Source: Hypanus sabinus (Eukaryota). From it: a stretch of 64,000 nt of DNA. The notes beneath the pieces were generated by a model that saw only the letters and a list, made by a program, of their open reading frames with translations, ran no database searches and was not told the DNA's origin. The stretch covers positions 48,794,001 to 48,858,000 of the forward strand of contig NC_082709.1 of assembly GCF_030144855.1 (NCBI RefSeq), written 5' to 3'. Position numbers and translations under genes: made by a program. Shown here in pieces: positions 9,031 to 45,860 of this stretch. Within the stretch, counting starts at the first letter, position 1; every line of letters begins with the position of its first letter.

Positions 9031-9884
9031 TGATTCAATAACTTTTTAAAAATGTATTCTTTTCTCATGACTTAGTGTTATTGGCAAGGCCAGCATTTAA
9101 TACCCATCCCTGACTACCCTAGAGAAAATGGAGGTGAACAGTTTTCCAAATCCCTGCAATCTAGTGACGTTCTCCAACAAAGCTGTTGGCAGGGAGTTTC
9201 AGGATTTAAACCCAGTGGCGATGAAGGACAAGTGATAGGTTTCCAAATCAGTGAGCTAAGAGATGTAGAGGGGAAGCTACAGATGGAAATGTTCCCCTGT
9301 CCTTTGGGAAATATTATCAGAGCAGCCTGGGCAAGTACCTGCAGTGTGTTTTTGTCGATGATACACACTGTAACCACTATGTATCAAAGCTTTGAATGAA
9401 CATTTCAGACGATTGCTAATCTGCCAACCAAGAAAAATGCTTTGATAGAGTTAAACTTATTGAGAGATGTTGGAACTCCACTCATCCAGCCAAGCAGAGA
9501 ATATCATGATGTGCCTTGGGAATGTGACTCCTTCTGTGCCTCGTCATGCTCCTCGTTCTCCACAACATGCTGCAGAACTGCCTTCCTGGACATTTGATCG
9601 CTCAATTAATTTCATATGTCCTGTCTGCTGGAGCAGACTGTGCATGCTTGGACAGGTATGATTTTAATCTGATGGGGTATGAGGCCCACCGGCTGCCCTC
9701 ACCTGGTTTAGTCTGCCCGTCGAAGCGATGTACTGAGGTGTATAGAACATGCAGACATCTACCTGGTGCCACAGGTGAGTGCTGAGAGCTGAATGGAGAC
9801 CTAAGGTGAGAGAACTGCCTCAGAATGGACACAGCAAGCCTCTTCACCAGAGGCACTACCCTCTGACGACACAACATACACGCT

Positions 9885-10099
9885 TGTGGTGAACTACGTG
9901 TGCCTGTCTGGACACACCCCCTGCTGACTGCTCCTGTGGCTCCTCCCACAGGCCCCTGTATAAAGGCGATCGAGGCCTAATGCTCGGCCTCAGTCTCCAG
10001 GACGTAGTATGATGGTCACTCACTGCTGGTTCCTTCTTCCAGTCAATAAAAGCCGATATCTCGCCTTACGTCTCAGAGTGAGTTATTGATGGTGCATCA
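9885..10099 (+). mobile_element. Solo LTR of the Mag-type Gypsy family
   Basis: TG...CA LTR with TSD ACGCT/ACCCT. Empty site ACCCT at 47287-47291. Confidence 0.93.
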
Positions 10100-11458
10100 A
10101 CCCTAACAATAGAAATTAGTAAAATATAACATTTTTTCAGTCATAGCTCTGAGCACGTACTTCAATACACTGATTTGGGAAGCAGAGGAAAGCTTTGGAA
10201 ATGATCAACAATATTGTCATAAGGGGAGCAAAGAATTCCAGCCAAACAACAAAAGAGTACAAATTTTTGTAGACTCTTGGGCAGCATTTTATAGATTTGT
10301 TTATTCTTGGACATTGGTGAATCAAAATATGAATGTATTTCATATGCTGTGATGGAAGCTTTATTACTACACCACTGCCAGTCAACTTTGCCAACCCCTA
10401 CTCCTACTTCATCTCCATATCTCCGAAACCTTCGATCATGTTTTACCCCGAGAGTGCAAATGTCATTTCTTTTTCATGCAGATATATGATTCTCTTTTGA
10501 AACTAACCAGCAATCCATTACAAGCCTCAGTTTCAAACAGTGCATTCTCGATGATCACAACTCACAGCGTGGACAAAATCCTCATTCACTCCCGTGTGAT
10601 TTTTACTGTCGGCCAGGCGCTGCTTTGTTTCCAGCTCTTCACAGGGGATGTGCAACCACAGAGTGAACCATTGCATTTGAGGATCCAAGGTATTCGGTCA
10701 GGTCTCAGCTTACAGCTCTTTCCCATCAGCTGGTAACCTAGAGTGAGAACTTGGGCAGTGGATCTGTCATTTAGTTTATTCAGTTTGACTGTTTACGGTA
10801 TCTCTATATTTCTGCTGTGAGCTGGACACCAGAGTGTTGGAAATTTGTTTTTCAAACAAGCTAAAGGGGTTCAGGGGAATTGCAGTATAAATTCCGTTAC
10901 AGATTCAGAACAAGTTTAAAGTGCTGGAGAGTTTAGTACTTCAGCTCTCTGGACATTCCTCATTCACAATTTGCTGAGAAATTTGCACCTGTACCTGGGC
11001 CAGTTTATAATAGTGATCATTTCTGGGTGAAATGGCACTCATTGGGACAATGACCCTAGCAATTCTGTACACAATTCACCTTCATATGACAAATGTGTTC
11101 CAGACATCATTCACATACTTCTCAGAGCCATGTTTTTCCCCGTAAATCGGGTCTTTAGGGTGCAACATACAACCTCTGTTGAAAGTTCACAATAAAACTA
11201 GGAGCACCTGGTGCTGTAAAGCTGATGGGACCAATTGAAGGATTTCTGTGCTGACATTGAATCCTGGAATATGAATCTTTGACTATAAAACAATGATGTA
11301 GTGAGTTGGAGATTATCCGTCCACACCTGTGTAGGAGACAGCAGCAAATCTGTGCTGATCTTCACTTTCAAAGTTCAGTTCTGTGGAATTTATTAGAATT
11401 TTGCTTTGAAAATGGAGTACAGTGTGTCAACGCTGCCATTGCACATAACGGGTATGAT

Positions 11459-14400
11459 TGTGGGGTAATGTAATTAGGAGGAATGTACAAAATTCAGAAC
11501 CACCGACATTGCACTGGGGTTTTGGTTTAAGAGGCTGGTCTCAGTGATGCACCATCAATAACTCTCCGAGACGTGAGGCGAGATATAGGCTTTTATTGGC
11601 TGGAAGAAAGAACAAGCAGCAGTTGACCACCATACTACATCCTGGAGACTGAGGCCAGGGCTGTGTCTCGAATCGCCTTTATACCGGGGTCAGTGGGAGG
11701 AGGCACAGGAGCAGTCAGCGGGGAGGTGGGGGCGTGTCCAGACAGATATATGTAGTTCACCACATTCACCCCCCCACCTTGTTCTAAAAGAGAGTCCCCA
11801 TGGGGCAAAGTTTCTTACAAGTATATTTACAGGTTAAGTCTATCAGGTGGTCAAATCTGTCGCTGCGATTTACGTAGCACCGGCTGTGATTGCACAGGTG
11901 CTGGTGGTGATCGCGCCAGAGACGATGGTTGTGCTGGTTCCGGCCTAACTGGAGGTGTCAGCCCACTAGGCGTCAGTGATCCCTCATGTGTGTGCGAGGC
12001 GCCTGGTATATGCGCGTGCAAGACGCCCGGTATAGGAGTGGCATGAGGAGTCTGTGTAGGGCTTGGTGTGCGTGGTGTCAGCTCGGGTACAAGGTTCATA
12101 GTTACCGTGGAGTGTTTGGGGTAGTGGTCTGCTGCTCCTGCGGGCGCCAGGTCGCGGATGGAGACCGTGTCCTCCTGCCCATCAGGTAAGACCACGTAAG
12201 CGTACTGGGGGTTCGCATGAAGTAGGTGAACCCTCTCGACCAGCGGGGAGTATTTATTGCTCCTCGCATGTTTCCGGAGCAGCACTGGCCCTGGGGATGT
12301 CAGCCAAGCCGGTAGGGTGGTCCCAGTGGCAGACTTCCTGGGAAAAGAAAATGGGTGCTCGTGAGGGGTGGCATTGGTGGACGTACATAACAGGGAGCGG
12401 ATAGAGTGGAATGCCTCGGGGAGGACCTCCTGCCATCGAGAGACTGACAACCCTTTTGACTTAAGGGCTAAAAGTGTGGCCTTCCACACTGTGGCATTCT
12501 CCCTCTCCACCTGTCCATTTCCCCAGAGATTATAGCTCGTGGTCCAACTAGTAGCAATGCCCCTAGCCAGCAGGTATTGGCGCAGCTCATCACTCATAAA
12601 GGAGGACCCTCTATCACTGTGGCTATAGCAGGGATATCCGAACAGAGTGAAGAGCTGACACAGGGCTTTTATGACAGACATGGCAGTGGTGTCGGGGCAC
12701 GGGATGGCAAAGGGGAACCATGAGTACTCGTTGATAATGTTGAGAAAGTAGACATTGTGGTCAGTGGAGGGAAGGGGGCCCTTAAAGTCGACTCTCAGTC
12801 GCTCAAAGGGGCGGGTGGCCTTGATAAGTTGTGCCTTTTCAGGACAGTAGAAGTGCAGTTTGCACTCAGCGCAGACTTGACAGTCCCTGGTCATCGTCCT
12901 GATGTCCTCAAGGGAGTACGGCAGGTTCCGGGCTTTCACGAAATGGTAAAATCGGGTGACCCTGGGTGGCAAAGATGCGCATGGAGGGCATATAGCTGGT
13001 CGAGCTGAGCGCTGGCGCATGCTCCCCGGGATAGGGCATCAGGGGGCTCATTGAGCCTTCCAGGTCGGTACAGGATTTCATAGTTGTAGGTGGAGAGTTC
13101 TATTCTCCACCGCAAAATTTTATCATTTTTGATTTTGCCCCGCTGTTGGTTGCTGAACTTGAACGCAACTGAGCGCTGGTCAGTCAGCAAGGTGAACCTT
13201 TTGCCGGCGAGATAGTGCCTCCAGTGCCTAATAGCTTCCACTATGGCCTGGGCTTCTTTCTCCACCACGGAGTGCCGAATTTCAGGGCCTTGAAGGGTAC
13301 GAGAAAAGAATGCTACTGGCCTGCCTGCCTGATTGAGGGCAGCAGCCAGCGCGAAATCGGAGACATCACTCTCTACTTGGAAGGGAATAGTCTCGCCAAC
13401 CGCATGCATCATTGCTTTGGCAATGTCCCCTTTAATGCAGCTGAAGGCCCTGCAGGCCTCGGCTGAGAGGGGAAATGTGGTAGACTTGACCAGGGGAGCG
13501 GGCCTTATCTGCGTAATGGGGAACCCATTGGGCGTAATAGGAAAAGAAGCCCAGGCACTGTCTGAGGGCTTTGAGGGTGGTGGGAAGAGGGAGTTCCAAC
13601 AGGGGGCGCATACGGTCGGGATTAGGGCCAATGACCCCGTTCTCCACGACATACCCAAGGATAGCGAGTCGGGTGGTTCCAAACACAGACTTGTCCCTGT
13701 TATAAGTAAGGTTCAGGGCTTCGGCCACTTGGAAAAATCATTGGAGGTTGGCGTTGTGATCTGACCAGTCGTGACCACAGATAGTGATGTTATCCAGATA
13801 GGGAAATGTGGCCTTCAGTTGGTACTGGTCCACCATCCGGTCCATTTCCCTCCGGAAGACAGAGACACCATTTGTGACACCGAAGGGGACGCGCAGGAAG
13901 TGATAGAGCCTGCCGCCCGCCTCGAAGGCGGTGTAGGGGCGGTCCTCTGGGTGGATGGGGAGCTGGTAATAAACAGATTTCAGATCTATTGTAGAGTACA
14001 CCTTGTACTGAGCTATCTGGTTGACCATATCCGCGATGCGGGGTAGGGTGTACGCGTCAAGCTGCGTGAACCTATTGATGGTCTGGCTATAGTCCACGAC
14101 CATTCTATTTTTCTGCCCGGTCTGAACAACGACCACCTGGGCCCTCCAAGGACTTGTGCTTGGCTCATTGATCCCCTCCCCGAGCAGCCGCTGCACCTCC
14201 AACTGAATGAAGGCCCTGTCCCCCGCGCTGTACCGCCTGCTTTTAGTTGCCACAGGTTTACAGTCGGGGGTCAGGTTGGCAAACAGCGGTGGGGGAGGGA
14301 TCCTGAGGGTGGAGAGGCTGCAAGTGGTGTCAGTAGCGCAGATGTCAGTATGTTGCTGGGTGGGATGTGTGGGTCGGTATGTGTGTGTGGTCACTAGCGG

Positions 14401-17400
14401 GGTATATGACGAAGTCCCACAAAACTGATGATTCCTGACAGTGAGTGGTGGGAGGGGCCCGTCATATGCCATAGTCACACTTTTGAGGTGGCTCTGGAAG
14501 TCCAGTCCCAATAGCACAGGGGCACACAGTTGAAGCATGACCAGTAGTGCAAAGTTCCGATATTCTGTGCCCTGCATCACCAATGTCGCTACACAACCCA
14601 CCCAGATGTCTGTGGAATCTGACTCAGAAGCCATGGTGACTCTCTGGCTTACCGGCCATGTCATGAGTCTGCAGCATTGCACCGTGTCCGTGTCAATAAA
14701 ACTGTCAGTGCTGCCCGTGTCAAACAGGCAGCTAGTCCTGTGTCCCTCCACCAGGATGTCCATCATTGACCTTGCAAGCTGGTGTGGGGCGCTTTGATCA
14801 AGGGTTACGGAGGCCAGAGTTGAACTGCCGTCTTGGTGCCCGGTAAGCACCGGTGGGTCAGGGGTGGGGTGAGGTGGCGCCGACAAAGATGGCCGCCCCC
14901 ATCCGGGCAGGCAAGATGGCGGCCCCCATGCCTCACACGCAGCGCTGCCCGACCCCGCTCGTGATTCAGACTTGGCGAAATGGCCCTTCTTCCCGCAGCT
15001 GGAGCAGGTCGCTTCTCGGGCCGGGCAGTGTTTTTGGGGGTGCTTTTCGAGCCTGCAGAAGTAACACTGCGCGGACTTGCGACTGGCAGCAGCTGTGGTC
15101 GGTTTCGGGGAGTTCGTGGACTCATGACTGGCAGCGGCGGTGGTGAATTCCGGCGGGGGATCGCGCGGCTGGACAGCGTCAGCGTTGTGCAGAGCAGCCT
15201 CCAGCGTGTTGGCCGTCTCAATCGCTGAGCGTAAGGTAAGTTCGGTATTTTCCAGCAGCCGCTGGCTCTCGTACGCTGACCTGATCCCTGTAACGAAGGC
15301 GTCTCATACTAGCAGCTCCGCATGCTGTTCCACCGTCAGCCCTCTGCAGTCGCAGGCTCGCACGAGTGTCTGTAGGGCTCGGAGAAACTGCCCGCTCAAC
15401 TCACTGGTTCGCTGTCGCCACGTCGCTAAGCGATGTATTGCATTGACGGTATTCACCGGCTGTAGTTACTGTCTTTTGAGGGCATCCAGTGCCCCTTGGT
15501 AGGTCGGCAGGTCTCTGATAAGGGAGAATACTTTCGGACTTACTCTGGATAGTAGTATTTTGTACATTGTGGCAGGCTCCGTCACTGGAATTGCTTCCAA
15601 GTATGATTGGAAGCATGCAAGCCAGAGTTCAAAGGCAAGAGCTGCTTCTGGGGCTTGGGGGTCCAAGTCTAATTTTTCTGGATGTAAAATACTTTCCATG
15701 TTTTAAAACTTCCAGCCAATAAAATTGATGCACCATCAATAACTCTCCGAGACGTGAGGTGAGATATAGGCTTTTATTGGCTAGAAGAAAGAACAAGCAG
15801 CAATTGACCACCACACTGCATCCTGGAGACTAAGACTGGGGCTGTGTCTCCAATCGCCTTTATACCGGGGTCAGTGGGAGGAGCCACAGGAGCAGTCAGC
15901 GGTGGGGGGGGGGGGGCGCGTGTCCAGACAGGTATATGTAGTTCACCACACTGAGGTGATAATATTGTTACGTAAGGATTTTTAGTGCACTTTTGTGTTT
16001 AGGTTTTGGAGTTCAGTAAAATGCGTTACGGGTTTCATTAAATATAGAACACCTCACTACATTTTATTTGTGGAAACCTACATTAGTGACCCCAATGCTC
16101 TAGGACAATTCCAGAGTTATTGAACATGTTGGCCATCAAAGTTGCTTTGAAATTGTCGAAGTTTTTGGAGCAAAATGCTATCGCTTGGTTTGTACAAGCA
16201 GAGGCCTAATTCATTCTGTGAGAAATTACTGCCAGTGACACCAAATTTTACGATGTGGTAGCGTCACTCAGCAATTCCACGACTGGGAAAGTTGTGAGTC
16301 TGCCTGAACCCCCACCTGTACACCATAAATACCAATCGCTGAAAACTCAACTTTTACAGACTTTTGGACTATCAGAGTCCGAGCACACCAAACAATTGCT
16401 CTCCCTACCCAGTCTCAGAGCATTGTTAGACCTTCCGGGCTAATGGATCATGTCCTGTCTCTCCTGCGAAATCACCATCTTTATACTATGTTTAAAGAAC
16501 TCTTCCTGCAGCATATTTCTGTCCAAGTTCTCATAGCCCCCGCTGATGCACCCATGAAGGATTACCGGGAACTTGTTAAAATGGCTGATAATCTCCAGTC
16601 ATCTAGGCAGTGGTACATCATTCCTCCTCCTTTCCCTACCTCAATAAGCCCGGTCAGCAAGGCCACAACACCAGGAAATAGACTACACCGTGTCTGTGCT
16701 TTTACCACACTTGCTTTGGAACAAATGCGAGGAGTTGCCAATCGCCTTGCACTCCAACAGTGCCAGCACATCGGGATATCAGAGATCTGTGACACCATGG
16801 GTTCCAATTGCTAGGGGCATCGACTGTTCATTACAAACACCATTTCAGGGTGACCCTTCTGGCGTGATATAGCTACTCACTGGCATGGCCTATTGATGAG
16901 AAGACAAAGAGTGACAAAACCTCACTGGAGCCCGCCAGCGGCAGTGGGATCCATTCTCACAGGACACGATGGGTGACGCTATGCTTCAATGGGTGGCCTT
17001 ACACATGGGACTTTGTCGTGGCTAAGGTGGCTCGACCTCTACTCGGTGCAGATTTCTTGTGTGCCCAAGGACTATTAGTCAATCTTACGATTGCCAGTTT
17101 ATGGATGTCAAAAGCTATAGATTATTACCCTGTTCCTATGTTAAGTTCCCCACAATGCATCTGCCAAGCATATGCACCACCACAGGTGAGTTTACTTGAA
17201 TGCTGGATGAATGTTGCAAGTGCCATGTGATTTCATTCCTGGTGCCACACAGCCTCGTTGGCCTCTCAACAGCATTTCACCCTCCTCCATTCAATTCCTT
17301 TTCACCTATTCTGACCTCCCATCATGACTTACAACACTTTTGGGTTCCTGTAACCTATATTCCACCTCGTTTGTTTTTGTCCACCATGACACACACAACA

Positions 17401-17928
17401 ATCTCATAGACCCCCTTATGAAGGCTCGTTCTATGTTTTGGAACAGGCAGAAAAGACTTTTGTCAGAGATAAGAGATGCAAACCTGATTGTATTTCAGTA
17501 GATCATCTTAAACCGGCCCAGCAAGATTTAGAGTATTCGCTGCCACGCCGCTGACGTCACATCATGACCATGAGTGTGTCAATGTTTCTCTGGACAAGCC
17601 AGGGGCACCTGCAGTTCCTCCACCTGTGGAATACAGGAACTGAGCCGGGCGGCTCGTCCGAGCTCCAGAAAGGCCCACAATGCCGATTGTAGTGAATTCT
17701 GGGGTGAGGCCTGTGTAGGGTGATGTAATTGGGAGAAATGTACATGATTCAATTCACAACCACCGACAATGAGTTAGGGTCTCACTTTAAGAAGCTGGTC
17801 TGATGTGATGATAACACGTAAGGATTTTTAGCACTCTTTTGTGTTTAGGGTTTGGAGTTCAATAAAATATGTTACAGGCTTCATTAAACATGAAACACCT
17901 CACTTCGTTTTATTTGCAAAAACCAACA
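11459..17928 (+). mobile_element. CsRN1-type Gypsy LTR retrotransposon, internally deleted, 5' LTR interrupted by the Mag-type element
   Basis: 5' LTR 11459-16082 (split) and 3' LTR 17714-17928. TSD TGAT (11455-11458 / 17929-17932). tRNA-Trp-like PBS TAGTGACCCC. Gag remnant WFVQAEA...TKFYDVVASL and protease LLGADFL. About 2.2 kb of RT-RH-IN is missing at ~17212 relative to the copy at 48654. Confidence 0.85.
11545..15950 (-). mobile_element. Full-length, disabled Mag-type Gypsy LTR retrotransposon (gag-PR-RT-RH-IN)
   Basis: 5' LTR 15726-15950, 3' LTR 11545-11764, PPT next to the 3' LTR, TSD CTCAG/CTGAG (empty site 48735-48739). Gag ATG at 15699; paired knuckles CYFC...H...C...CSSCGKKGH; protease LFDTGS; RT SPW...PFG...YLDN; RNase H; integrase zinc finger plus VDFKGP/HSDRG/ERE. 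Stops and frameshifts at ~15466, ~13738, ~13500 and ~12960. Confidence 0.93.
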
Positions 17929-18227
17929 TGATCAGAAATGACTTTCTACTCAAGTGTATCTTATCTTCTAACTCATAATTGCAAAGAGGTTTAGAAATGT
18001 AGTAGATTAAAGTTTATCTCTGTTTTCTTTTGAACAGTAGTTTCTAGGAATGCTTTATTCCAAATTATCTGCAAATATAAATTGTTATCTCACTGTTATG
18101 AAACTTATACAGGATTGTATATGGGTTCAAGAAAGTTCAAAGTACAGAATTGATAACTTACTAAAGTCCATTTTATCTGAGTCCACCAAAACTTACGCCA
18201 GACAACATTATGCTTTGTAGTAGCTGC

Positions 18228-19336
18228 CTAGAAGTCCCTCAAGTGTCTGAGGGACCCAGTTGAAAGACCCAGACACTGTATTTCCTGGGCTTCCTAGATT
18301 TCAGTTAGTACTGTCGGCCTCTGTAGTTGGGATGTTCATGGAAGATCCAGTAACCATCCATCACCTGACAGGAGTGGATGTCACAGCAACAGAAACTATC
18401 ATAGACAGAGGGACAGTCGTCCATGAATTCCATCATCTTCCTTTCACCCCAAACTCTGCCCTGTTCACCATGGAGGATATAAAATATGAAGGAAAACATC
18501 AAACTCAAATGCGTCAAGGACAGTGGAAGCAGACAGATCAATTGCCTTTGTTCCTACCATGTAGTCGGAGTTGGAGACTGCCATTTTGTGCGATAAAGTT
18601 GCTTTGCTTTCTGTGTTTTAAAGAAAACATAATGTTGCTTCAGGTAATCTGCTGGATTAGAGATCATTTCCAAATAAGAATTAATTTGTGAGCAGTTTTG
18701 ATATAATATAACATGCAGGTTTCTGAATGCTGGGGCTGGTGCCTCCTTGGAGTGAGTCGAGCTGGTTACTGAAGAGAACAAAGAGCAATAAATTATTGAT
18801 TGTCACTTGCTGGGAAGAGGGCAATAAATGGATGCGAGCCGAGAGCAGAGCCAATAAAAAGGTGTTAAATGTCAGACACTTGACCTACAGCCAATGACAC
18901 TGAAATGCGATATTTGAATTAGACAATACACAATAGACAATAGGTGCGGGAGTAGGCCATTCGGCCCTTCGAGCCAGCACCACCATTCAATGTGATCGGG
19001 GCTGATCATCCACAATCAGTACCCCATTCCTGCCTTCCCCCCATATCCCTTGACTCCGCTATCTTTAAGAGCTCTATTGGTATGGAACGAATATAAAAGG
19101 GGGCTCTTCAAGTGTACTATCAAGAGATCTACCATTGCAGGAAGGATCCGCACACCAGAGACTGAAGGAAGAAAGGATTGATCACCTGGCCAACGGCGAT
19201 CCCCTATTTCAGTGTTATAAATTAGAAAAGCGTCCATTAATTACAGTTTGTGTAGTGAGTTTGCTCTTCTAGTACCATGGATAAATAGTCAACAGCCCTC
19301 TGGTAAATTCTCATCTTTGTAGTTACCTCCTCAGTA
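18228..19336 (-). pseudogene. Orphan gamma-crystallin exon 3, split by an ~850-bp insertion
   Basis: 5' piece 19294-19336 follows an acceptor TTTCAG and reads TAC TGA GGA GGT AAC TAC (stop, then +1 frameshift). 3' piece 18228-18440 reads [13 protein letters not shown]...YRGRQY*. No exon 1 or 2 is seen upstream. Confidence 0.9.
18920..19076 (-). mobile_element. 5'-truncated CR1 3' stub inside the pseudo-exon insertion (also ~37733-37889, ~53956-54112)
   Basis: Encodes the ORF2 end (RALKDSGVKGYGGKAGMGY*), then a 3' UTR like 25265-25345 and an (ATTGTCT)n-like tail. Confidence 0.85.
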
Positions 19337-21662
19337 CTGAAATAAATTATTTTAATGCATTCTTAATATAATCATGTCAAAAATGCATATAATATACTGT
19401 GGATATTATATATACAGTAAGAAACAATGTGCTGACACTGGAGAGGGTTCAAAGGCTTGTCACGTGAGGAGGCTTGCATTGTCCTGGCTTGTACATGCTG
19501 GAATTTAGAAGAATGATAGGGTGAGGGACTTACTCTCTATAAATTCTTCCTCTCTACTGTAATAGCTAACTTGATTTTCTCTGTCTTTGTAGATGAGAAT
19601 GGCCTATGATTGCTGTATTTCCTGTGCCTTCATTGTTATTACTATTTACTGGTCTGGAACTGACTCCGCCAATGTTTCTGTCCTTTGCTCTTTCTTCGCT
19701 CCTCCCAAGCTCATCCACTTTCTTCATTAAACAACAATTTGCTGAAGGAACTCAGAGGGGCAGACAGCATCTGCAGAGGGATATGGAAATTTCATTTCCA
19801 CCAATTGCAGTTTTGTTGGCTGGTCATTATAGGCTTTGATTATTGTAGTATACAAAAAATTGTTTTCAGTCCACTGCTTTCTGTAGGATGCACCTTGGTT
19901 TAGCGAATGAGCTGACACCTCAGATTGCTTAGTATTTCATCTGGAGGTTACGTGCTAGCTCTGCCTTCACATTAATTCCTGACACAGTAATCAGGTCCCA
20001 GTCTAGCTGCCTAATGTACATTTAATACTGACATCAGCATTTCCTGTCCAACTCACAAGAGAAGTTCATAGAGGAAAGTGGTTGATTTAGCATTGACTGG
20101 CTGGGTGTTGGGGTTTTCCTGTGGAGGCAAAAGGGTGGTCAATGTTTTAGCTCCAGGCCTTGCATCAGGAACAAGAATGTAAGAGAGAGATAGCCAAAAA
20201 ATAGAGGGGAAGTAGTGGGATGAGGCGGGGGCTGGCAGGCAACTGGTGTAACGAGGTGGGAAAAGGGATGACAGGTTTATGGAACCATGTATGGGGAAGG
20301 TCAGGGTGAAGGTTGCGAGAGAATGGCTGGAGGCTGATGCGTATAAACAGACAAGGAGAGAGTGGGAAATACTGGATGGGGGATCGAGGAGTGAGAGATA
20401 GAGGATGACATGATATGCGGAGATATAAAGGTTGCAGATGCTGGAAAATGAGGAGGAAGGAAGGTGAGAAGGGAGCGATGAAAGAGGGAAACCTCTGGAC
20501 CTTCACTTTGGGATGTTTTCCTTTTTCCCCTACTCAATCTCTAGTTGGATGTCTACCCTCCTCACAGTCTGGTTACTCACATCACTATTACTAGTGTTCT
20601 TACACTTTAACTTTCTGAATTCCTTTGAACACTCCCCATCACCACTCACACAAGAAATCCTTAGGACTTTCACTCATCATTTCACCTGGATCTACATACC
20701 TGCCATCCCTTTCTCCAGTCCATCTTATACTGGCTGCCTCCCCTCTAAGTTCAAGGTCATTTGCAAGATGGACAGCTGTCAATGTAAGCTTCCAAACTGC
20801 ATGTATCCCTCACAAATCGTAATCCAAATTAAATTGCTTGGAATTGGAAGTGTCCATTCACATTGTCAGAATTTGTTTGTGAAGGAAACATTATTATGGA
20901 AAAGGGTTAACGATATTATTGTCGGCACCTTTGTCTTTAGGCTGTAATCATCTCAAAAATGGATGGTACGTGTCCAGTTTGCAACAGGCGGGAAGAGGCA
21001 GCGTAGCGGTGCAGGTAGTAGAACCACCGCCTCACAATGTCAGCAACCTAAAGTGATGTCTATATAGGACTTCCACATTCTCACTGCAAGCCCATGTTTT
21101 CTTTCTAGGTGTCTGGTTTTGTTCTTGATCTGCAGAGAAAAGCCATCTGGTGGGTAAATCGACCATTGTATGTTGTTCTTTGTGTGTCGGTGACTACAAT
21201 TTGGAGAAGTGATGAGAATATGTGGTGATTTTTAAAAATATTATCAATGAAGGATTAGTGTAAGTGGGTAGTTAATGTTCAGCCCTGACTCAATGGGCCA
21301 AAGGGCCTGTTTCCACGTTGTATCTCTCTATAAGAGCAGGAATCCACAGAGGTGTGACAATTTATCACTATCCTCTCAATAGGAGAAGATGACCTGATCA
21401 ATAATGAATTACATATTCAGCATGCCTCTGGATAAAAATTATCTCCACAATGATAGCAACTAAAATGAGAAATAATCCTGAGTTAAGGCCAATATGGGTC
21501 AAAGCCACCACACAGGACTCAGGTACTAATGTTATTTTGTATGTTTTAAACAATGTTACAACAGCATGAAAATAAATGAATTACAATGACAATTATCATG
21601 CAAAGCTTATTTTATTTTCTGAAGTATGTTCTCAGAATAATATGCTGATTATTGAGAGTCAA

Positions 21663-24600
21663 CTAGAAGTCCCTCATTCGCCTGAAGGACCCAACAGTTG
21701 AGCTGTAGCCTCCCCAGTCACTGTATCTCCTGTATTCCCCGGGTCTCAGGAAGTACTGTCGGCCTCTGTAGTTGGGATGTTCATAGAAGATCCAGTAACC
21801 ATCCATCACCTGACAGGAGTGGATGTCACGGTAACAGAAACGATCATAGAGAGAGGGACAGTCGTCCATGAATTCCATCATCTGTCCTGCAAATTCAGGC
21901 TTCTCATAAATCTTCATCCTGTAGGTGCCCCCTCGGTGCTGGAATAAAGGATTTTATGTGTCCTTAATGCAGTATAGTCATGTCAAAATGCATATAATTA
22001 TCACAGACTTTATATATACATGCAGTTGTACTAGTCCTCAGAATTATCAATAATTAATTATATTTCAAGACTATCATGATTTAAGATTGAGGAAGTTCAC
22101 TATTTCTACAGGAGGCAGCTAAGAACATTACAGTTTCATGAATACTAAAAAAAATTTGGTTGTTGATCTCATGAAAGATATTTAAGGATATTAAAGTATA
22201 CTCAATATAATTACATGAAAGTATATATTACATAAATAATGTCATAATTGTGTTTCTGAATTAGATGCGTATCGATTAAATGTAATACCTGGTTGAAGAA
22301 CTTGTTCTGGATTTCTGAAGACAAGTGCAGAGAGACAGAGGGGTGTAAAATGAGGGTAGATACAAAAAGTAGTAAGGTGAAAAGTAAAAGTGTCGGACAG
22401 GCAAATCCAGGGCAAAAATCAAAAAAGGCCACTTTTCAACATAATTGTACAACGGCTAAGAGTGTTGTAAAAACAAGCCTGAAGGCTTTTTGTGTCAATG
22501 CGAGGAGCATTTGTAACAAGATAGATGAATTGAATGTGCAGATAGTCATTAATGAATATGATATAGTTGGGATCACAGAGACATGGCTCCAGGGTGACCA
22601 AGGATGGGAGCTCAACATCCAGGGATATTCAATATTCAGGAGGGATAGACAGGAAAGAAAAGGAGGTGGGGTAGCATTGCTGGTTGGAGAGGAGATTAAT
22701 GCAATAGAAAAGAAGGACATTTGCCTGGAGGATGTGGAATCGATATGGGTAGAGCTGCATAACACTAAGGGGCAGAAAACACTGGTGGGAGTTGTGTACA
22801 GGCCACCGAACAGTAGTAGTGAGGTTGGGGATGGCATTAAACGGGAAATTAGAAATGCGTTCAATAAAGGAACAGTAGTTATAATGGGTGACTTCAATCT
22901 ACATATAGATTGGGTGAACCAAATTGGTAAGGGTGCTGAGGTTGAGGATTTCTTGGAATGTATGCGGGATGGTTTTCTGAAACAACATGTCGAGGAACCA
23001 ACTAGGGAGCAGGCCATCCTAGATTGGGTATTGAGCAATGAGGAAGGGTTAGTTAGCAATCTTGTCGAGCGAGGCCCCTTGGGTAAGAGTGACCATAATA
23101 TGGTGGAATTCTTCATTAAGATGGAGAGTGACATAGTTAATTCAGGAACAAAGGTTCTGAACTTAAAGAAGGGTAACTTTGAAGGTATGAGACGTGAATT
23201 AGCTAAGATAGACTGGCAAATAATACTTAAAGGGTATGCAATGGCAAGCATTTAAAGATCGCATGGATGAATTACAACAATTGTTCATCCCAGTTTGGCA
23301 AAAGAATAAACCAGGGAAGGTAGTGCACCCATGGCTGACAAGGGAAATCAAGGATAGTATCAAGTCCAAAGAAGAAACATACAAATTAGCCAGAAAAAGT
23401 GGCATACCTGAGGACTGGGAGAAATTCAGAGTCCAGCAGAGGAGGACAAAGGGATTAATTAGGAAAGGGAAAAAAGATTATGAGAGAAAGCTGGCAGGGA
23501 ACATAAAAACTGACTGTAAAAGCTTTTATAGATATGTGAAAAGAAAAAGATTGGTCAAGACAAATGTAGGTCCCTTACAGTCTGAAACAGCTGAATTGAT
23601 CACGGGGAACAAGGACATGACAGACCAACTGAATAACTACTTTGGTTCTGTCTTTACTAAGGAGGACATAAATAATCTTTGGGAAATAGTAGGGGACCAA
23701 GGGTCTAGTGAGATGGAGGAACTGAGGGAAATACATGTTAGTGGGGAAGTGGTGTTTGGTAAATTGAAGGGATAAAAGGCAGATAAATCCCCAGGGCCAG
23801 ATGGTCAGCATCCCAGACTGCTTAAGGAAGTAGCCCAAGATATAGTGGATGCATTACTGATAATTTTTCAAAACTCCTTAGATTCTGGATTAGTTCCTGA
23901 GGATTGGAGGGTGGCTAATGTAACCCCACTTTCTTAAAAAGGAGGGAGAGAAAAACTGGGGAATTATAGCCTGACATCGGTGGTGGAAAAATGCTAGAGT
24001 CAGTTATCAAAGATGTGATAACAGCACATTTGGAAAGCAGTGAAATCATCGGACAAAGTCAGCATGGATTTGTGCAAGGAAAATCATGTCTGACCAAACT
24101 TATAGAATTTTTTGAAGATGTAACTAGTAGAGTGGATAGGGGAGAGCCAGTGGATGTGGTATATTTGGATTTTCAAAAGGCTTTTGACAAGGTCCCACAC
24201 AGGAGATTACTGTGCAAACTTAAAGCACACGGTATTGGGGGTATGTTATTGTTGTGGATAGAGAAGTGGTTGGCAGACAGGAAGCAAAGAGCGGGAGTAA
24301 ACGGGACCTTTTCAGAATGGCAGGCAGTGACTAGTGGGGTACCCCAAGGCTCAGTGCTGGGATCCCAGTTGTTTACAATATATATTAATGATTTAGACAA
24401 GGGAATTAAATGCAGCATCTCCAAGTTTGTGGATAACACGAAGCTGGGCAGCAGTGTTAGCTGTGAGGAGGATGCTAAGAGGATGCGGGGTGACTTGGAT
24501 AGGTTCGGTGAGTGGGCAAATCCATGGCAGATGCAATTTAATGTGGATAAATGTGAGGTTATCCACTTTAGTTGCAAGAACAGGAAAACAGATTATTATC

Positions 24601-26812
24601 TGAATGGTGGCCGATTAGGAAAAGGGGAGGTGCAACGAGACCTGGGTGTCATTGTACACCAATCATTGAACGTGGGCATGCAGGTACAGCAGGCAGTGAA
24701 AAGGGCAAATGTTATGTTGGCATTCATAGCAAAAGGATTCGAGTACAGGAGCAGGGAGGTTCTACTGCAGTTGTACAAGGCATTGGTGAGACCGCACCTA
24801 GAGTATTGTGTGCAGTTTTGGTCCCCTAATCTGAGGAAAGACATTCTTGCCATAGAGAGAGTACAGAGAAGGTTCACCAGATTGATTCCTGAGATGGCAG
24901 GACTTTCATATGAAGAAAGACTGGATCGACTAGGCTTATACTCACTGGAATATAGAAGTTTGAGGGGGGATCTTATTGAAACGTATAAAATTCTAAGAGG
25001 ATTGGACAGGCTAGATGCAGGAAGATTGTTTCCGATGTTGGGGAAGTTCAGAACGAGGGGTCACAGTTTAAAGATAAAGGGGAAGCCTTTTAGGACCGAG
25101 ATGAGGAGAAACTTCTTCACGCAGAGAGTGGTGTATCTGTGGAATTCTCTGCCACAGGAAACAGTTGAGGCCGGTTCATTGGCTATATTTAAGAGGAAGT
25201 TAGATATGGCCCTTGTGGCTAAAGGGATCAGGGGATATGGAGAGAAAGCAGGTACAGGGTTCTGAGTTGGATGATCAGCCATGATCATACTGAATGGCGG
25301 AGCAGGCTCAAAGGGCCGAATGGCCTACTCTTGCACCTATTTTCTATGTTCCTAAGGCAGTATTAACAAAAAGAACAAAGTTTACAGAATTTAGTTCCAC
25401 TAGAGATAACATAATGTAATTAATGTAAAACTTGTGTATTAGCATGATGGTAACTATGATAAATGTACATACAGTAGGTGCTGGTCTGTGTCTGTAAATA
25501 GGTTGAATTACTAATGCAAAAAATGCAAATTGTTTTGAGCATTTTCAGATTCCTCATTCCTCACTACCTCTCTGTCAGAGCTGTAAATTTAAGTCTACAC
25601 AGGGTGTGATTGTTGGAAACAATAATACAGCCATCCCGTATTTCAACCTGGGTATCAGCTACAGCCTGACTTATTTTATTGGTTCTTATTACCTGACCAG
25701 ATGATTTTGAAAAAAATTGCAACTTATGGGAGAGGGCAGATTGCTTCAACATTGAGCGAACATGGATTCAACGGGCCAAACAGCCTCACTCCATGCTTTA
25801 ACCTCACTGTGGTTCTCTGATACCATGCAATTAAAAACGTAGGATTTTGTAATTCAGACCACCAGCGGCCTGATTCAGTGAATAAGGAGGATGTTTTAGT
25901 ATGAATGAAAAACCACACAAATTCGTGAAAAGAGGCCATTCGTCCCATTGAAACCTTAATAGTCAAAATTATTTTCTGTCCAATCCTTCTTATCTCTTAT
26001 GAGATGTTAAGAGGAATAGATAAAAGTGCACAGTCAGAGAATTTTTCTCAAGGCAGAAATGGCTAACAGGAGAAAACATAAAATTTAAAAAAACTGTGCG
26101 TGGACATTCATATAGTTCCCGCATCAAAGCCAATGATGCATATGTCAGTGATAATAAACCTGATTCTGATTCCAATTCTTTACCCAGTGCCCTCGCAATC
26201 ACGGATACAGCTCTGTCTGTCAAAAGGACTCTGACATTCATCCCTCACACCAGATTCACTCATTTCCTGCACCAATGTCCTTTCTGTTGACTCATTTAAC
26301 AAATATCTACTGTCTCCAAACTTGTCTCCAAATGTCAGCAGCTAACTCTAGCATTCAAATCAGCACAACATTTCAGCGAAAGAGCTTGTGGACAAGTGTA
26401 ATTATTGCAAATGTCAGCCATTTCCTAGCAGTGTGTCAATTGGCTTGGAATACCTCAGTCACCAACAGCAACTTACAGGTGGGTAACTGCGACAGGACTT
26501 GACACAGTCATTGAATCCCATCCAGCGCTGGTAGTCAGGATACTCTCCCCTGCTCAGGACATACTGGTATCCCATGTAGTTGGGTCTCTCGTACAACACC
26601 CACCAGTCACTCTCAACACGGATGGAGTTACAGCGGCTGAAGTAAGGGGAGAGGTCAGCACAGTCGGAGCTGCACTCATAGTGCCGACCCTGGAAGTTCC
26701 TGTCCTCGTAGAAGATGATCTGTGGGAAGAAATAAATTGCTTAAATCAGACTGGGAACGAATGATGGTTACAATATAATTCACTAAATGAAAAGTGGTCT
26801 TGCCTTTCCCAT
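21663..26812 (-). CDS. Gamma-crystallin (gammaS-1-like), gene B; CDS exons 26804-26812, 26477-26719, 21663-21938; 175 aa
   Basis: [14 protein letters not shown]...[22 protein letters not shown]...RRMRDF*. Intact frame and splice sites. Intron 2 carries a CR1. Confidence 0.94.
22324..25353 (+). mobile_element. CR1 LINE (5'-truncated, whole ORF2, disabled) in intron 2 of gene B
   Basis: APE endonuclease motifs NARS/ITETW/YRPP/GDFN/SDH and RT motifs [22 protein letters not shown]. Frameshift at ~23236 and stop at ~23773. TTCTATGTTCCT tail. TSD AAGACA/AAGGCA; empty site at 57507-57512. Confidence 0.95.
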
Positions 26813-26860
26813 TGTGGTGTATGGTCGATAACCAACTGACTACATGGAACTGTAACTGGG

Positions 26861-27050
26861 TATTTATCTACTGGACAGAAAGGCTTTTCCAGCAAGGCCT
26901 TTGTAATGTAAATGATGCAAACCTGAGGTCAGCAGAAAACAACATACATCCCGTGAATGCTGAAAAAGCACCTGAGGATATGAGACTTGTCAGTGATCCA
27001 GTGATTGTTTTTGTTTTACAGCAGGCAATTTAATTGTACAAAGCAGTAAA
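26861..27050 (-). promoter_or_regulatory. Proximal promoter of gene B with variant TATA (TAGATAAATA)
   Basis: Aligns to the gene A promoter. MARE-like TGCTGAAAAAGCA at 26958-26970 is retained. Confidence 0.6.
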
Positions 27051-27741
27051 TCAGCCTTTTTCATTCTATGCTAGCGATCATTCCAGAGTTTCAAAAAGTT
27101 GCAGCCCGAGATATGTCCTGAGTTTTACCAAAATTTACACGTCAGGGACAATTTGCAATTTACCAATCTGCACAGTTTTGTGATGTGTGAGGAAATGAAG
27201 GCAGCCAGAGGAAACCGATGAGAGAGGAGAGAGGAGGTGCAAACACCTGAGCTTTTGAATCGGGCTCTCTGCAGGGACCGGGAGATTGTGTCTGTCATAG
27301 AGATGTTTCAACAAAATTTCTTTTAGTATCCAGCTGCAGATTCTGGGGCCGTACAGTAGCATAGGTGTTAGTGTAATGCAATACAGCACCAGTGATTCAG
27401 GTTCAATACCCATGCTGTTTTAACAAACTTGTATATTCTCCTCATTATCGTGGTTTCCTCCTGGTTCTCTGGGTTCCTCCCACATTCCAAAGACCTACAG
27501 GTGAGTACGTTGTGGGCATGCTATGCTGGCACTGGAAGCATGATAACGTTTGCAGACAGACCACAGCACATCCTCGGACTGTGTTGGTTGCTGTCGCAAA
27601 TGATGCATTTCACTGTACACTTCGATGATTGAATAACTTTTTAAAAATGTATTCTTTTCTCATGACTTAGTGTTATTGGCAAGGCCAACATTTAATACCA
27701 TTCCCTGACTACCCTAGAGAAAATGGAGGTGAACAGTTTTC

Positions 27742-27953
27742 TGTGGTGAACTATGTGCCTGTTGGGACACGCCCCTGCTGACTGCTCCTGTGGCTCCTCC
27801 CACAGGCCCCTGTATAAAGGAGACCTGCGGCCTGAAGATCGGCCTCATTCTCCAGGACCTTGTATGATAGACACTCACTCCTGGTTCCTTCTTCCAGTCA
27901 ATAAAAGCCGATATCTCGCCTACGTCTCAGTGTGAGTTATTGATGGTGCATCA
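27742..27953 (+). mobile_element. Solo LTR of the Mag-type family, unique to unit B
   Basis: TG...CA LTR with perfect TSD TTTTC (27737-27741 / 27954-27958). Empty sites at ~9142 and ~46549. Confidence 0.93.
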
Positions 27954-28696
27954 TTTTCCAAATCCCTGCAATCTAGTGACGTTCTCCAACAAAGCTGTTG
28001 GCAGGGAGTTTCAGGATTTAAACCCAGTGGCGATGAAGGACAAGTGATAGGTTTCCAAATCAGTGAGCTAAGAGATGTAGAGGGGAAGCTACAGATGGAA
28101 ATGTTCCCCTGTCCTTTGGGAAATATTATCAGAGCAGCCTGGGCAAGTACCTGCAGTGTGTTTTTGTCGATGATACACACTGTAACCACTATGTATCAAA
28201 GCTTTGAATGAACATTTCAGAAGATTGCTAATCTGCCAACCAAGAAAAATGCTTTGATAGAGTTAAACTTATTGAGAGATGTTGGAACTCCAGCCATCCA
28301 GCCAAGCAGAGAATATCATGATGTGCCTTGGGAATGTGACTCCTTCTGTGCCTCGTCATGCTCCTCGTTCTCCACAACATGCTGCAGAACTGCCTTCCTG
28401 GACATTTGATCGCTCAATTAATTTCATATGTCCTGTCTGCTGGAGCAGACTGTGCATGCTTGGACAGGTATGATTTTAATCTGATGGGGTATGAGGCCCA
28501 CCGGCTGCCCTCACCTGGTTTAGTCTGCCCGTCGAAGCGATGTACTGAGGTGTATAGAACATGCAGACATCTACCTGGTGCCACAGGTGAGTGCTGAGAG
28601 CTGAATGGAGACCTAAGGTGAGAGAACTGCCTCAGAATGGACACAGCAAGCCTCTTCACCAGAGGCACTACCCTCTGACGACACAACATACACGCT

Positions 28697-28911
28697 TGTG
28701 GTGAACTACGTGTGCCTGTCTGGACACACCCCCTGCTGACTGCTCCTGTGGCTCCTCCCACAGGCCCCTGTATAAAGGCGATCGAGGCCTAATGCTCGGC
28801 CTCAGTCTCCAGGACGTAGTATGATGGTCACTCACTGCTGGTTCCTTCTTCCAGTCAATAAAAGCCGATATCTCGCCTTACGTCTCAGAGTGAGTTATTG
28901 ATGGTGCATCA
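28697..28911 (+). mobile_element. Solo LTR (duplicate of 9885-10099)
   Basis: Same sequence and flanks at offset 18,812. Confidence 0.93.
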
Positions 28912-30270
28912 ACCCTAACAATAGAAATTAGTAAAATATAACATTTTTTCAGTCATAGCTCTGAGCACGTACTTCAATACACTGATTTGGGAAGCAGAGG
29001 AAAGCTTTGGAAATGATCAACAATATTGTCATAAGGGGAGCAAAGAATTCCAGCCAAACAACAAAAGAGTACAAATTTTTGTAGACTCTTGGGCAGCATT
29101 TTATAGATTTGTTTATTCTTGGACATTGGTGAATCAAAATATGAATGTATTTCATATGCTGTGATGGAAGCTTTATTACTACACCACTGCCAGTCAACTT
29201 TGCCAACCCCTACTCCTACTTCATCTCCATATCTCCGAAACCTTCGATCATGTTTTACCCCGAGAGTGCAAATGTCATTTCTTTTTCATGCAGATATATG
29301 ATTCTCTTTTGAAACTAACCAGCAATCCATTACAAGCCTCAGTTTCAAACAGTGCATTCTCGATGATCACAACTCACAGCGTGGACAAAATCCTCATTCA
29401 CTCCCGTGTGATTTTTACTGTCGGCCAGGCGCTGCTTTGTTTCCAGCTCTTCACAGGGGATGTGCAACCACAGAGTGAACCATTGCATTTGAGGATCCAA
29501 GGTATTCGGTCAGGTCTCAGCTTACAGCTCTTTCCCATCAGCTGGTAACCTAGAGTGAGAACTTGGGCAGTGGATCTGTCATTTAGTTTATTCAGTTTGA
29601 CTGTTTACGGTATCTCTATATTTCTGCTGTGAGCTGGACACCAGAGTGTTGGAAATTTGTTTTTCAAACAAGCTAAAGGGGTTCAGGGGAATTGCAGTAT
29701 AAATTCCGTTACAGATTCAGAACAAGTTTAAAGTGCTGGAGAGTTTAGTACTTCAGCTCTCTGGACATTCCTCATTCACAATTTGCTGAGAAATTTGCAC
29801 CTGTACCTGGGCCAGTTTATAATAGTGATCATTTCTGGGTGAAATGGCACTCATTGGGACAATGACCCTAGCAATTCTGTACACAATTCACCTTCATATG
29901 ACAAATGTGTTCCAGACATCATTCACATACTTCTCAGAGCCATGTTTTTCCCCGTAAATCGGGTCTTTAGGGTGCAACATACAACCTCTGTTGAAAGTTC
30001 ACAATAAAACTAGGAGCACCTGGTGCTGTAAAGCTGATGGGACCAATTGAAGGATTTCTGTGCTGACATTGAATCCTGGAATATGAATCTTTGACTATAA
30101 AACAATGATGTAGTGAGTTGGAGATTATCCGTCCACACCTGTGTAGGAGACAGCAGCAAATCTGTGCTGATCTTCACTTTCAAAGTTCAGTTCTGTGGAA
30201 TTTATTAGAATTTTGCTTTGAAAATGGAGTACAGTGTGTCAACGCTGCCATTGCACATAACGGGTATGAT

Positions 30271-33200
30271 TGTGGGGTAATGTAATTAGGAGGAATGTAC
30301 AAAATTCAGAACCACCGACATTGCACTGGGGTTTTGGTTTAAGAGGCTGGTCTCAGTGATGCACCATCAATAACTCTCCGAGACGTGAGGCGAGATATAG
30401 GCTTTTATTGGCTGGAAGAAAGAACAAGCAGCAGTTGACCACCATACTACATCCTGGAGACTGAGGCCAGGGCTGTGTCTCGAATCGCCTTTATACCGGG
30501 GTCAGTGGGAGGAGGCACAGGAGCAGTCAGCGGGGAGGTGGGGGCGTGTCCAGACAGATATATGTAGTTCACCACATTCACCCCCCCACCTTGTTCTAAA
30601 AGAGAGTCCCCATGGGGCAAAGTTTCTTACAAGTATATTTACAGGTTAAGTCTATCAGGTGGTCAAATCTGTCGCTGCGATTTACGTAGCACCGGCTGTG
30701 ATTGCACAGGTGCTGGTGGTGATCGCGCCAGAGACGATGGTTGTGCTGGTTCCGGCCTAACTGGAGGTGTCAGCCCACTAGGCGTCAGTGATCCCTCATG
30801 TGTGTGCGAGGCGCCTGGTATATGCGCGTGCAAGACGCCCGGTATAGGAGTGGCATGAGGAGTCTGTGTAGGGCTTGGTGTGCGTGGTGTCAGCTCGGGT
30901 ACAAGGTTCATAGTTACCGTGGAGTGTTTGGGGTAGTGGTCTGCTGCTCCTGCGGGCGCCAGGTCGCGGATGGAGACCGTGTCCTCCTGCCCATCAGGTA
31001 AGACCACGTAAGCGTACTGGGGGTTCGCATGAAGTAGGTGAACCCTCTCGACCAGCGGGGAGTATTTATTGCTCCTCGCATGTTTCCGGAGCAGCACTGG
31101 CCCTGGGGATGTCAGCCAAGCCGGTAGGGTGGTCCCAGTGGCAGACTTCCTGGGAAAAGAAAATGGGTGCTCGTGAGGGGTGGCATTGGTGGACGTACAT
31201 AACAGGGAGCGGATAGAGTGGAATGCCTCGGGGAGGACCTCCTGCCATCGAGAGACTGACAACCCTTTTGACTTAAGGGCTAAAAGTGTGGCCTTCCACA
31301 CTGTGGCATTCTCCCTCTCCACCTGTCCATTTCCCCAGAGATTATAGCTCGTGGTCCAACTAGTAGCAATGCCCCTAGCCAGCAGGTATTGGCGCAGCTC
31401 ATCACTCATAAAGGAGGACCCTCTATCACTGTGGCTATAGCAGGGATATCCGAACAGAGTGAAGAGCTGACACAGGGCTTTTATGACAGACATGGCAGTG
31501 GTGTCGGGGCACGGGATGGCAAAGGGGAACCATGAGTACTCGTTGATAATGTTGAGAAAGTAGACATTGTGGTCAGTGGAGGGAAGGGGGCCCTTAAAGT
31601 CGACTCTCAGTCGCTCAAAGGGGCGGGTGGCCTTGATAAGTTGTGCCTTTTCAGGACAGTAGAAGTGCAGTTTGCACTCAGCGCAGACTTGACAGTCCCT
31701 GGTCATCGTCCTGATGTCCTCAAGGGAGTACGGCAGGTTCCGGGCTTTCACGAAATGGTAAAATCGGGTGACCCTGGGTGGCAAAGATGCGCATGGAGGG
31801 CATATAGCTGGTCGAGCTGAGCGCTGGCGCATGCTCCCCGGGATAGGGCATCAGGGGGCTCATTGAGCCTTCCAGGTCGGTACAGGATTTCATAGTTGTA
31901 GGTGGAGAGTTCTATTCTCCACCGCAAAATTTTATCATTTTTGATTTTGCCCCGCTGTTGGTTGCTGAACTTGAACGCAACTGAGCGCTGGTCAGTCAGC
32001 AAGGTGAACCTTTTGCCGGCGAGATAGTGCCTCCAGTGCCTAATAGCTTCCACTATGGCCTGGGCTTCTTTCTCCACCACGGAGTGCCGAATTTCAGGGC
32101 CTTGAAGGGTACGAGAAAAGAATGCTACTGGCCTGCCTGCCTGATTGAGGGCAGCAGCCAGCGCGAAATCGGAGACATCACTCTCTACTTGGAAGGGAAT
32201 AGTCTCGCCAACCGCATGCATCATTGCTTTGGCAATGTCCCCTTTAATGCAGCTGAAGGCCCTGCAGGCCTCGGCTGAGAGGGGAAATGTGGTAGACTTG
32301 ACCAGGGGAGCGGGCCTTATCTGCGTAATGGGGAACCCATTGGGCGTAATAGGAAAAGAAGCCCAGGCACTGTCTGAGGGCTTTGAGGGTGGTGGGAAGA
32401 GGGAGTTCCAACAGGGGGCGCATACGGTCGGGATTAGGGCCAATGACCCCGTTCTCCACGACATACCCAAGGATAGCGAGTCGGGTGGTTCCAAACACAG
32501 ACTTGTCCCTGTTATAAGTAAGGTTCAGGGCTTCGGCCACTTGGAAAAATCATTGGAGGTTGGCGTTGTGATCTGACCAGTCGTGACCACAGATAGTGAT
32601 GTTATCCAGATAGGGAAATGTGGCCTTCAGTTGGTACTGGTCCACCATCAGGTCCATTTCCCTCTGGAAGACAGAGACACCATTTGTGACACCGAAGGGG
32701 ACGCGCAGGAAGTGATAGAGCCTGCTGCCCGCCTCGAAGGCGGTGTAGGGGCGGTCCTCTGGGTGGATGGGGAGCTGGTAATAAACAGATTTCAGATCTA
32801 TTGTAGAGTACACCTTGTACTGAGCTATCTGGTTGACCATATCCGCGATGCGGGGTAGGGTGTACGCGTCAAGCTGCGTGAACCTATTGATGGTCTGGCT
32901 ATAGTCCACGACCATTCTATTTTTCTGCCCGGTCTGAACAACGACCACCTGGGCCCTCCAAGGACTTGTGCTTGGCTCATTGATCCCCTCCCCGAGCAGC
33001 CGCTGCACCTCCAACTGAATGAAGGCCCTGTCCCCCGCGCTGTACCGCCTGCTTTTAGTTGCCACAGGTTTACAGTCGGGGGTCAGGTTGGCAAACAGCG
33101 GTGGGGGAGGGATCCTGAGGGTGGAGAGGCTGCAAGTGGTGTCAGTAGCGCAGATGTCAGTATGTTGCTGGGTGGGATGTGTGGGTCAGTATGTGTGTGT

Positions 33201-36741: not shown

Positions 36742-37040
36742 TGATCAGAAATGACTTTCTACTCAAGTGTATCTTATCTTCTAACTCATAATTGCAAAGA
36801 GGTTTAGAAATGTAGTAGATTAAAGTTTATCTCTGTTTTCTTTTGAACAGTAGTTTCTAGGAATGCTTTATTCCAAATTATCTGCAAATATAAATTGTTA
36901 ACTCACTGTAATGAAACTTATACAGGATTGTATATGGGTTCAAGAAAGTTCAAAGTACAGAATTGATAACTTACTAAAGTCCATTTTATCTGAGTCCACC
37001 AAAACTTACGCCAGACAACATTATGCTTTGTAGTAGCTGC

Positions 37041-45624: not shown

Positions 45625-45672
45625 TGTGGTGTATGGTCGATAACCAACTGACTACATGGAACTGTAACTGGG

Positions 45673-45860
45673 TATTTATCTACTGGACAGAAAGGCTTTT
45701 CCAGCAAGGCCTTTGTAATGTAAATGATGCAAACCTGAGGTCAGCAGAAAACAACATACATCCCGTGAATGCTGAAAAAGCACCTGAGGATATGAGACTT
45801 GTCAGTGATCCAGTGATTGTTTTTGTTTTACAGCAGGCAATTTAATTGTACAAAGCAGTA
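45673..45860 (-). promoter_or_regulatory. Proximal promoter of gene C with variant TATA (TAGATAAATA)
   Basis: Matches the gene B promoter. MARE-like site at 45770-45782. Confidence 0.6.

Follow-up and report, generated by a model that had tools for sequence, protein, structure and literature searches.

Reverse transcription primed by an element's own RNA has so far been proven only for the Tf1-type chromoviruses of yeast, in which the primer lies at the extreme 5′ end of the transcript. In Tf1 the primer is described as the 11 bases with which the RNA begins, released by an RNase H cut (PMC7175516), the Tf1/sushi chromoviruses are reported to have a three-duplex 'pretzel' structure in common (PMC10085805), and about half of the Tf1 cDNAs in one account retain a copy of the primer-binding site (PBS) at the 3′ end (PMC11042837). 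Self-priming has also been predicted for Tcn1 and TAR (PMC6317226). The element described here is on the minus strand of a 64-kb window of Hypanus sabinus DNA (the window being the whole stretch that was analysed). Its leader pairs with its own LTR, the pairing is kept with other letters elsewhere, and it is likely (a probability of roughly 0.7) that a piece of about 60 nt from its own 5′ RNA, and not a tRNA, acts as the primer; that self-priming occurs in some form we consider very probable.

The window element and its leader

The element is 4.4 kb long (15950–11545) with LTRs of 225 and 220 nt, and judged by its sequence it is a dead member of Ty3/Gypsy. The 5′ LTR (15726–15950, minus strand, as are all features of the element) starts with TG, ends with CA and is 91% identical to the 3′ LTR (11545–11764), and the flanking CTCAG and CTGAG are a decayed 5-bp target duplication. 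A polypurine tract (PPT) and a 2-nt AA spacer precede the 3′ LTR (11765–11780). The gag-pol frame (11827–15699), interrupted by several stops and frameshifts, codes for Gag with two zinc knuckles, protease, reverse transcriptase (RT) with the motif YLDN, RNase H and integrase. The TG...CA LTRs, the PPT and the order protease-RT-RNase H-integrase are those of Ty3/Gypsy (Metaviridae), and the best PDB match of the RT is that of Ty3. Within the 5′ LTR a putative TATA box (TATAAA, 15859–15864) is followed by an initiator-like zone at TATA+26 to +38 (15827–15839), which is the predicted transcription start and would be the 5′ end of the primer.

Only 26 nt separate the LTR end at 15726 from the gag ATG at 15699. 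The LTR edge reads CA followed by ATTTTATTGG and therefore has no TGG, as the initial annotation had pointed out; relatives and 56 copies from the genome have, like the window element, CA followed by ATTT at this junction, which is not a PBS of the tRNA type. What follows the LTR is instead complementary to the LTR itself. The putative PBS TTTTATTGGCTGGAAG (15709–15724) begins 1 nt past the CA and is, as had been claimed, the exact reverse complement of 3′ LTR positions 11606–11591 (16/16). Its partner in the 5′ LTR is the arm CTTCTAGCCAATAAAA (15772–15787, with AATAAA at 15778–15773), which belongs to the R segment and is complementary at 15 of the 16 positions, the remaining one being a U-G pair. 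A 16-mer match of this kind is expected by chance inside a 220-nt LTR of the same composition with a probability of about 3e-8. Between the two arms is a 47-nt loop (15725–15771) consisting of the rest of R, U5 and one additional A.

In the computed fold of the 5′ RNA all 16 pairs of this long stem have probabilities of 0.88–1.0, and the stability of the whole 147-nt stretch is unremarkable (z −1.29). A search of 15600–16000 against Rfam gave no family at the gathering score and two sub-threshold chance matches. The initial annotation also proposed an inner hairpin, ATTGATG-GTG-CATCAAT (15740–15724). Its letters are present, but its computed probability of forming beside the long stem is 0.05–0.15 and it has no common counterpart in the loops of relatives, so that a working role for it is unsupported.

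The window contains a second copy of the same insertion (30357–34767, minus strand), in which the arrangement recurs at 34521–34599. This had been put forward as a further occurrence, and it is present; however, it is inside an 18.6-kb tandem duplication (9133–27741 and 27945–46553, 99.7% identity) and is therefore not independent, and we discount it as support. The duplication, which has a solo LTR (27742–27953) at its junction, is either a recent event or an assembly artefact. A LINE with endonuclease and RT domains (22350–25265 and 41163–44096, plus strand) was duplicated along with the segment. That solo LTR is one of several from a sister subfamily, characterized by CAGTCAATAAAA, the others being at 9885–10099 (plus strand), 1935–2150 and 28697–28911. 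Elsewhere (G000:C1:64884438-64892973) three leader junctions spaced 4,255 bp apart likely represent the element arrayed in tandem. Among named proteins the closest matches come from a stingray (86%), a catshark and an electric ray; the stingray protein (P0001), labelled as a PSTPIP1a isoform, is 86% identical to the protease-RT of the element, and is probably a gene model that absorbed it.

Covariation within the genome and among relatives

The genome contains 2,531 leader junctions, of which 307 are of the window type (GGCT) and 2,224 have GACT. From the sister-subfamily LTRs the initial annotation had predicted leaders with the compensatory sequence TTTTATTGACTG, and these are indeed present at the 2,224 junctions, paired with the matching LTR. 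Among 56 distinct normal junctions the LTR and PBS bases at this position are C/G in 35, T/A in 17, T/G in two, and C/A and A/A in one each, all of which reflects a single change between two subfamilies. Rarer PBS variants at two positions are never mirrored in the 5′ LTR (0/20 and 0/21; 0/41 overall), so that at this level there is no sign of the primer being copied into the PBS. These variants, at about 1% per site, are probably post-insertion mutations.

More distant relatives provide many further arm sequences. A metagenome scan gave 80 loci, in 42 of which the gag start could be located, with enough upstream DNA in 41. A stem of 10–18 bp, between a segment 33–68 nt upstream and the bases directly past the CA, is found in 32 of these 41 (none of 60 base shuffles equals it), and is set off from the CA by 1 nt in 29 of them and by 2 nt in the other three; where both LTRs are available, the CA preceding the stem is the LTR end. 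The stem-bearing relatives have about 16 different arm sequences, their RTs are 44–63% identical, and they are dispersed over the RT tree, which was built without named reference elements and includes four loci lacking a clear stem (L151, L191, L140 and L134). One example of change within a single family is the pair L129 and L130, in which both arms differ. What is constant is the register, AAA at the arm end in nearly all, and then GC or AC. Most of the nine relatives without a significant stem look decayed or deleted, and L134 is short. We note that the bases past the arm (15771–15767 in the window, minus strand) are conserved as GCCT, GCCG or ACCT across families with otherwise unrelated LTRs; a cut determinant or a landing site for strand transfer is possible.

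Eight of the 16 arm types end in AATAAA or ATTAAA, the others having GTTAAA, TTTAAA, CATAAA, TTCAAA or none of these, and in one relative (L124) AATAAA is in the loop and not in the stem. Fold z-scores at ten loci lie between −0.7 and −5.0, and the loops of these ten have no common structure; with the low probability of the inner hairpin, this speaks against a three-duplex pretzel or U5-IR stem. Named homologs, known by their proteins, come from corals, anemones, molluscs, flukes, nematodes, crustaceans, a spider and hagfish. An integrase chromodomain is absent from the window element, from the intact L124 and, by precomputed domains, from all 120 listed full-length homologs. There are no relatives among 77 candidate viral contigs, and the ESM Atlas returned generic RT clusters only. 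Our literature search, which took in neither most subscription papers nor the Repbase reports, found no account of such a stem in this clade.

The catalytic motif of the window RT (13741–13790, minus strand) is YLDN, where Ty3 has YLDD. Among the 120 listed full-length homologs, 81 have YxDN and 35 have YxDD, and YxDN is also present in L124 (2882–5746), whose pol frame is open and whose LTRs are identical. The same D-to-N change in Ty1 is reported to keep polymerase activity in vitro and to block transposition (PMC2148107). The stem is found in both YxDN and YxDD families and the RT motif is therefore not tied to priming. No literature on YLDN or YxDN in these RTs was found.

Fold-back insertions and minus-strand stubs

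At 252 places in the genome, about one in ten of all leader junctions, U5, the additional A and the PBS run into reversed LTR sequence. Of thirty unselected GACT junctions, 28 continue into gag, two into reverse-complement LTR and none into host DNA. We read 191 of the fold-back junctions (the first 90 listed places and 100 from two narrower patterns, with apparent duplicates omitted). Later DNA inversion between the arms was ruled out as their source, as none of the 191 is a simple loop inversion. Sixteen of the 19 full palindromes are flanked by a 5-bp target duplication, which is perfect in 14. Together with the lack of loop inversions, this indicates that the fold-backs are cDNA errors inserted by integrase, and hence that the arm-PBS duplex forms and gets extended. 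One form consists of palindromic insertions of about 385 bp that have U3 at both ends and a target duplication of 5 bp (L097, L207, L237, L243, L245 and 11 more), and these are integrated snapped-back plus strong-stop DNA.

The reversed arm extends to the LTR start in 159 of the 191. For such products the cDNA must either snap back or anneal, through its PBS copy, to a free 3′ R; they are no pointer to a 5′ primer. Twenty-three of them go on into the PPT and integrase, and 11 of the 23 are behind a complete LTR. Of the 32 arms that end short of the LTR start, 14 end in a 13-nt zone (read in sister copies) at the predicted transcription start, 10 are shorter and eight end in U3. The zone spans −8 to +4 around an initiator-like A at TATA+33/34, and the clustering of 14 of 32 has a binomial probability of 3e-7 for a zone picked after the data were seen. 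A complete LTR precedes the fold-back in nine of the 14, and in three cases (L208, L334 and L390) the sequence rejoins the leader or gag after the zone endpoint, as if the plus strand had copied an attached primer as far as its 5′ terminus and then realigned. A predicted GC-rich hairpin terminates at the endpoint cluster and RT stalling could be an alternative cause; at a hairpin of equal stability 40 nt upstream there is one endpoint. In three other insertions (L225, L259 and L399) the 5′ LTR and PBS are followed by 7–20 nt of reverse LTR and then, via microhomology, by gag.

The other end of the primer is marked by stubs of the minus strand. In LTR elements the minus-strand product usually has two bases beyond the CA of the LTR. 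We identified 32 junctions with a visible upstream minus-strand start, and 12 of these (7 junction types) end one base inside the A run, at GATATCGGCT; five are at +3/+4, two are ambiguous (+2 to +9) and the others are scattered from −29 to +167. LTR fragments starting at AGCC across the genome include 18 template-switch junctions in 28 matches (12–15 distinct), a set that partly overlaps the fold-backs and in which some repeated junctions may share one event. Two upstream control positions gave five distinct template-switch junctions in 16 matches, and none in three. In L404 and L410 the stub is joined to internal integrase and RT sequence. The stubs stop at the arm boundary, and the minus strong-stop DNA thus appears to end there, as if on a template cut at or within one base of AATAAA^AGCC; most stub junctions share 1–5 nt with the acceptor and the cut position is therefore fixed to about one base only. 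A cut here leaves two bases (AT) beyond the CA, which the AA before the TG at the other end matches.

These observations bear on where the primer comes from. One arrangement is that of Tf1 itself, with transcription starting at or just before the arm and the first 15–16 nt serving as primer, the TATA-based start being wrong or minor. A pyrimidine run ahead of the arm could act as the initiator, a search for a TATA box in the LTRs of ten relatives saw none, the first 11 bases are what Tf1 is described as using (PMC7175516), and the cut site and 48-nt strong stop would be the same. We nonetheless think a start at the arm unlikely, as the 14 endpoints group 40–52 nt upstream of it, at TATA+26 to +38, in a search whose pattern is blind to products ending exactly at the arm start, and the 30 unselected junctions again hold only gag (28) and fold-backs (2), with no host DNA. 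A second source would be the 3′ R of genomic RNA, of the same or a second molecule, with the cut or trimming again at AAA^GC in an arm that is not base-paired there. The 23 arms that pass U3 into the PPT and integrase look as if the plus strand had read such a long 3′ primer, yet a PBS copy annealing to a free 3′ arm also yields them. With a 3′ primer the 5′ arm would be free and the strong stop should reach the start site, whereas the stubs stop at the arm boundary; the local stem with its 47-nt loop also has a predicted probability near 1, and a 3′ origin is decidedly unlikely. A third and very improbable arrangement is that the stem only masks the 5′ poly(A) signal or controls translation while a host RNA or tRNA fragment primes. 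In its favour, AATAAA is entirely within the stem in the window family, half of the related arm types end in AATAAA or ATTAAA, and our search for tRNA fragments was non-exhaustive. Against it, the stem always starts 1–2 nt past the CA in a PBS register needless for masking, some 16 leaders would each require a different host primer, the other half of the arm types have no canonical hexamer and the AATAAA of L124 is in the loop, Rfam has no family at the gathering score over 15600–16000, and the end of the arm is where the fossils show a break.

Proposed priming and comparison with known systems

A tRNA-independent start of reverse transcription in which the PBS pairs with an internal, AATAAA-bearing R segment, as suggested in the initial annotation, is well supported by the compensatory leaders, the stems of relatives and the fold-back fossils. 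The fossil endpoints suggest that the RNA would begin about 30 nt past the TATA box. The R segment ending in AATAAAA would then fold across the loop of about 47 nt onto the PBS, a predicted pairing that is backed by covariation and by the fold-back products. As the stub ends suggest, a single cut at or within one base of AATAAA^AGCC (15773/15772, minus strand) would free the 3′-OH; by analogy with Tf1 the cutter is probably the element's own RNase H, a domain present at the sequence level in both the window element and L124. RT would copy the loop only, giving a strong-stop DNA of about 48 nt that includes the usual 2 nt beyond the CA. For the first strand transfer the only landing place would be the brief interval from AATAAA to the poly(A) site, and R is itself complementary to the copied PBS; these two features would explain why about one in ten leader junctions is a fold-back.

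The second role envisaged for the duplex, that of masking the 5′ poly(A) signal, is plausible in the window family, where the hexamer is inside the stem, and is not general. Half of the 16 arm types are without a canonical hexamer and masking is therefore secondary; judging from these sequences it is likely a side effect in the window family and not a conserved purpose.

The pairing is real and extends across the clade. Most likely it represents a new geometry for self-priming, in which genomic fossils record where the primer begins and where it ends. A broader proposal, to which we give about as much credence as doubt, is that a large chromodomain-less Gypsy clade in cnidarians, molluscs, worms, arthropods and cartilaginous fish acquired self-priming independently of Tf1, with a cut at a conserved TAAA^GC, a capped leader of about 60 nt as primer, a stem that silences the 5′ poly(A) signal and a short effective R that makes transfer error-prone, the errors revealing primer start, cut and strong-stop length, and with a YxDN RT in most members. 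If the reading of an internal self-primer is right, a second geometry, with an internal primer and a cut at the position of the poly(A) signal, exists in an unrelated-looking and abundant animal clade, elements became independent of tRNA on more than one occasion, and such elements escape annotation that relies on the PBS. Integrated copying errors would provide a general route to mapping where extinct retroelements started transcription, were cut and took their primers, and the window yields exact, testable coordinates for the primer ends.

In size the element is similar to the compact animal Gypsy elements of the Cigr-1 and Mag lineage, which are about 4.2 kb long with short LTRs and one ORF. 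It may belong to this lineage, a placement that we take as a lead only (PMC3601003). Molluscs and Ciona are reported to have a Cigr-1 clade (PMC6238403), the main text of that report makes no mention of a PBS or primers, and a term search of PMC2577118 gave no match. The Kuafuorterviruses (Troyka) were excluded as a placement, as the window element has YLDN and 4.4 kb and these are described with IADD, VADD or LADD and as mostly 5–6 kb (PMC11673190); in their reference alignment YLDN occurs once (Dane-1) and SPWRAQ is absent, although gaps could hide it.

Several described systems have parts of the arrangement in common with the window element. In the HIV-1 poly(A) hairpin AAUAAA is likewise in a stem near the 5′ end, but that stem is within R and tRNA-Lys3 primes, whereas in the window element the partner is the PBS itself. 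The fungal GalEa elements with their 'conserved hairpin site', and the biv-TRIMs, are described as having no tRNA PBS and, at the edge of the LTR, a hairpin that is conserved (PMC5445492, PMC6934838); both arms of that hairpin are downstream of the LTR, whereas one arm is inside R in the window element. For TAR (Houba/Osr-1), Ty1/copia elements of plants, self-priming is likewise predicted from complementarity between PBS and LTR (PMC6317226); these are of another superfamily and other hosts, and the account as consulted describes no fossil mapping of primer ends. The closest systems are Tf1 and Tf2 of Schizosaccharomyces pombe, Tj1 and the Tf1/sushi group including Tcn1, which are also Ty3/Gypsy elements with no tRNA PBS and with a PBS that pairs with their own 5′ RNA (PMC7175516, PMC10085805, PMC11042837). 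In the Tf1 group, as described there, one cut makes the primer, which is copied into the end of the plus strand, and one cut is also what the stubs suggest here. The use of an element's own RNA as primer is known and the internal-primer variant would be new: unlike in Tf1, whose primer requires the three-duplex pretzel, the partner in the window element is about 45 nt past the predicted start, the primer would be about 60 nt long, and it would end at the position of the poly(A) signal. The window element probably works in a Tf1-like manner and yet is placed outside the Tf1/sushi group, with a probably internal partner, no common flanking duplexes and an integrase without a chromodomain.
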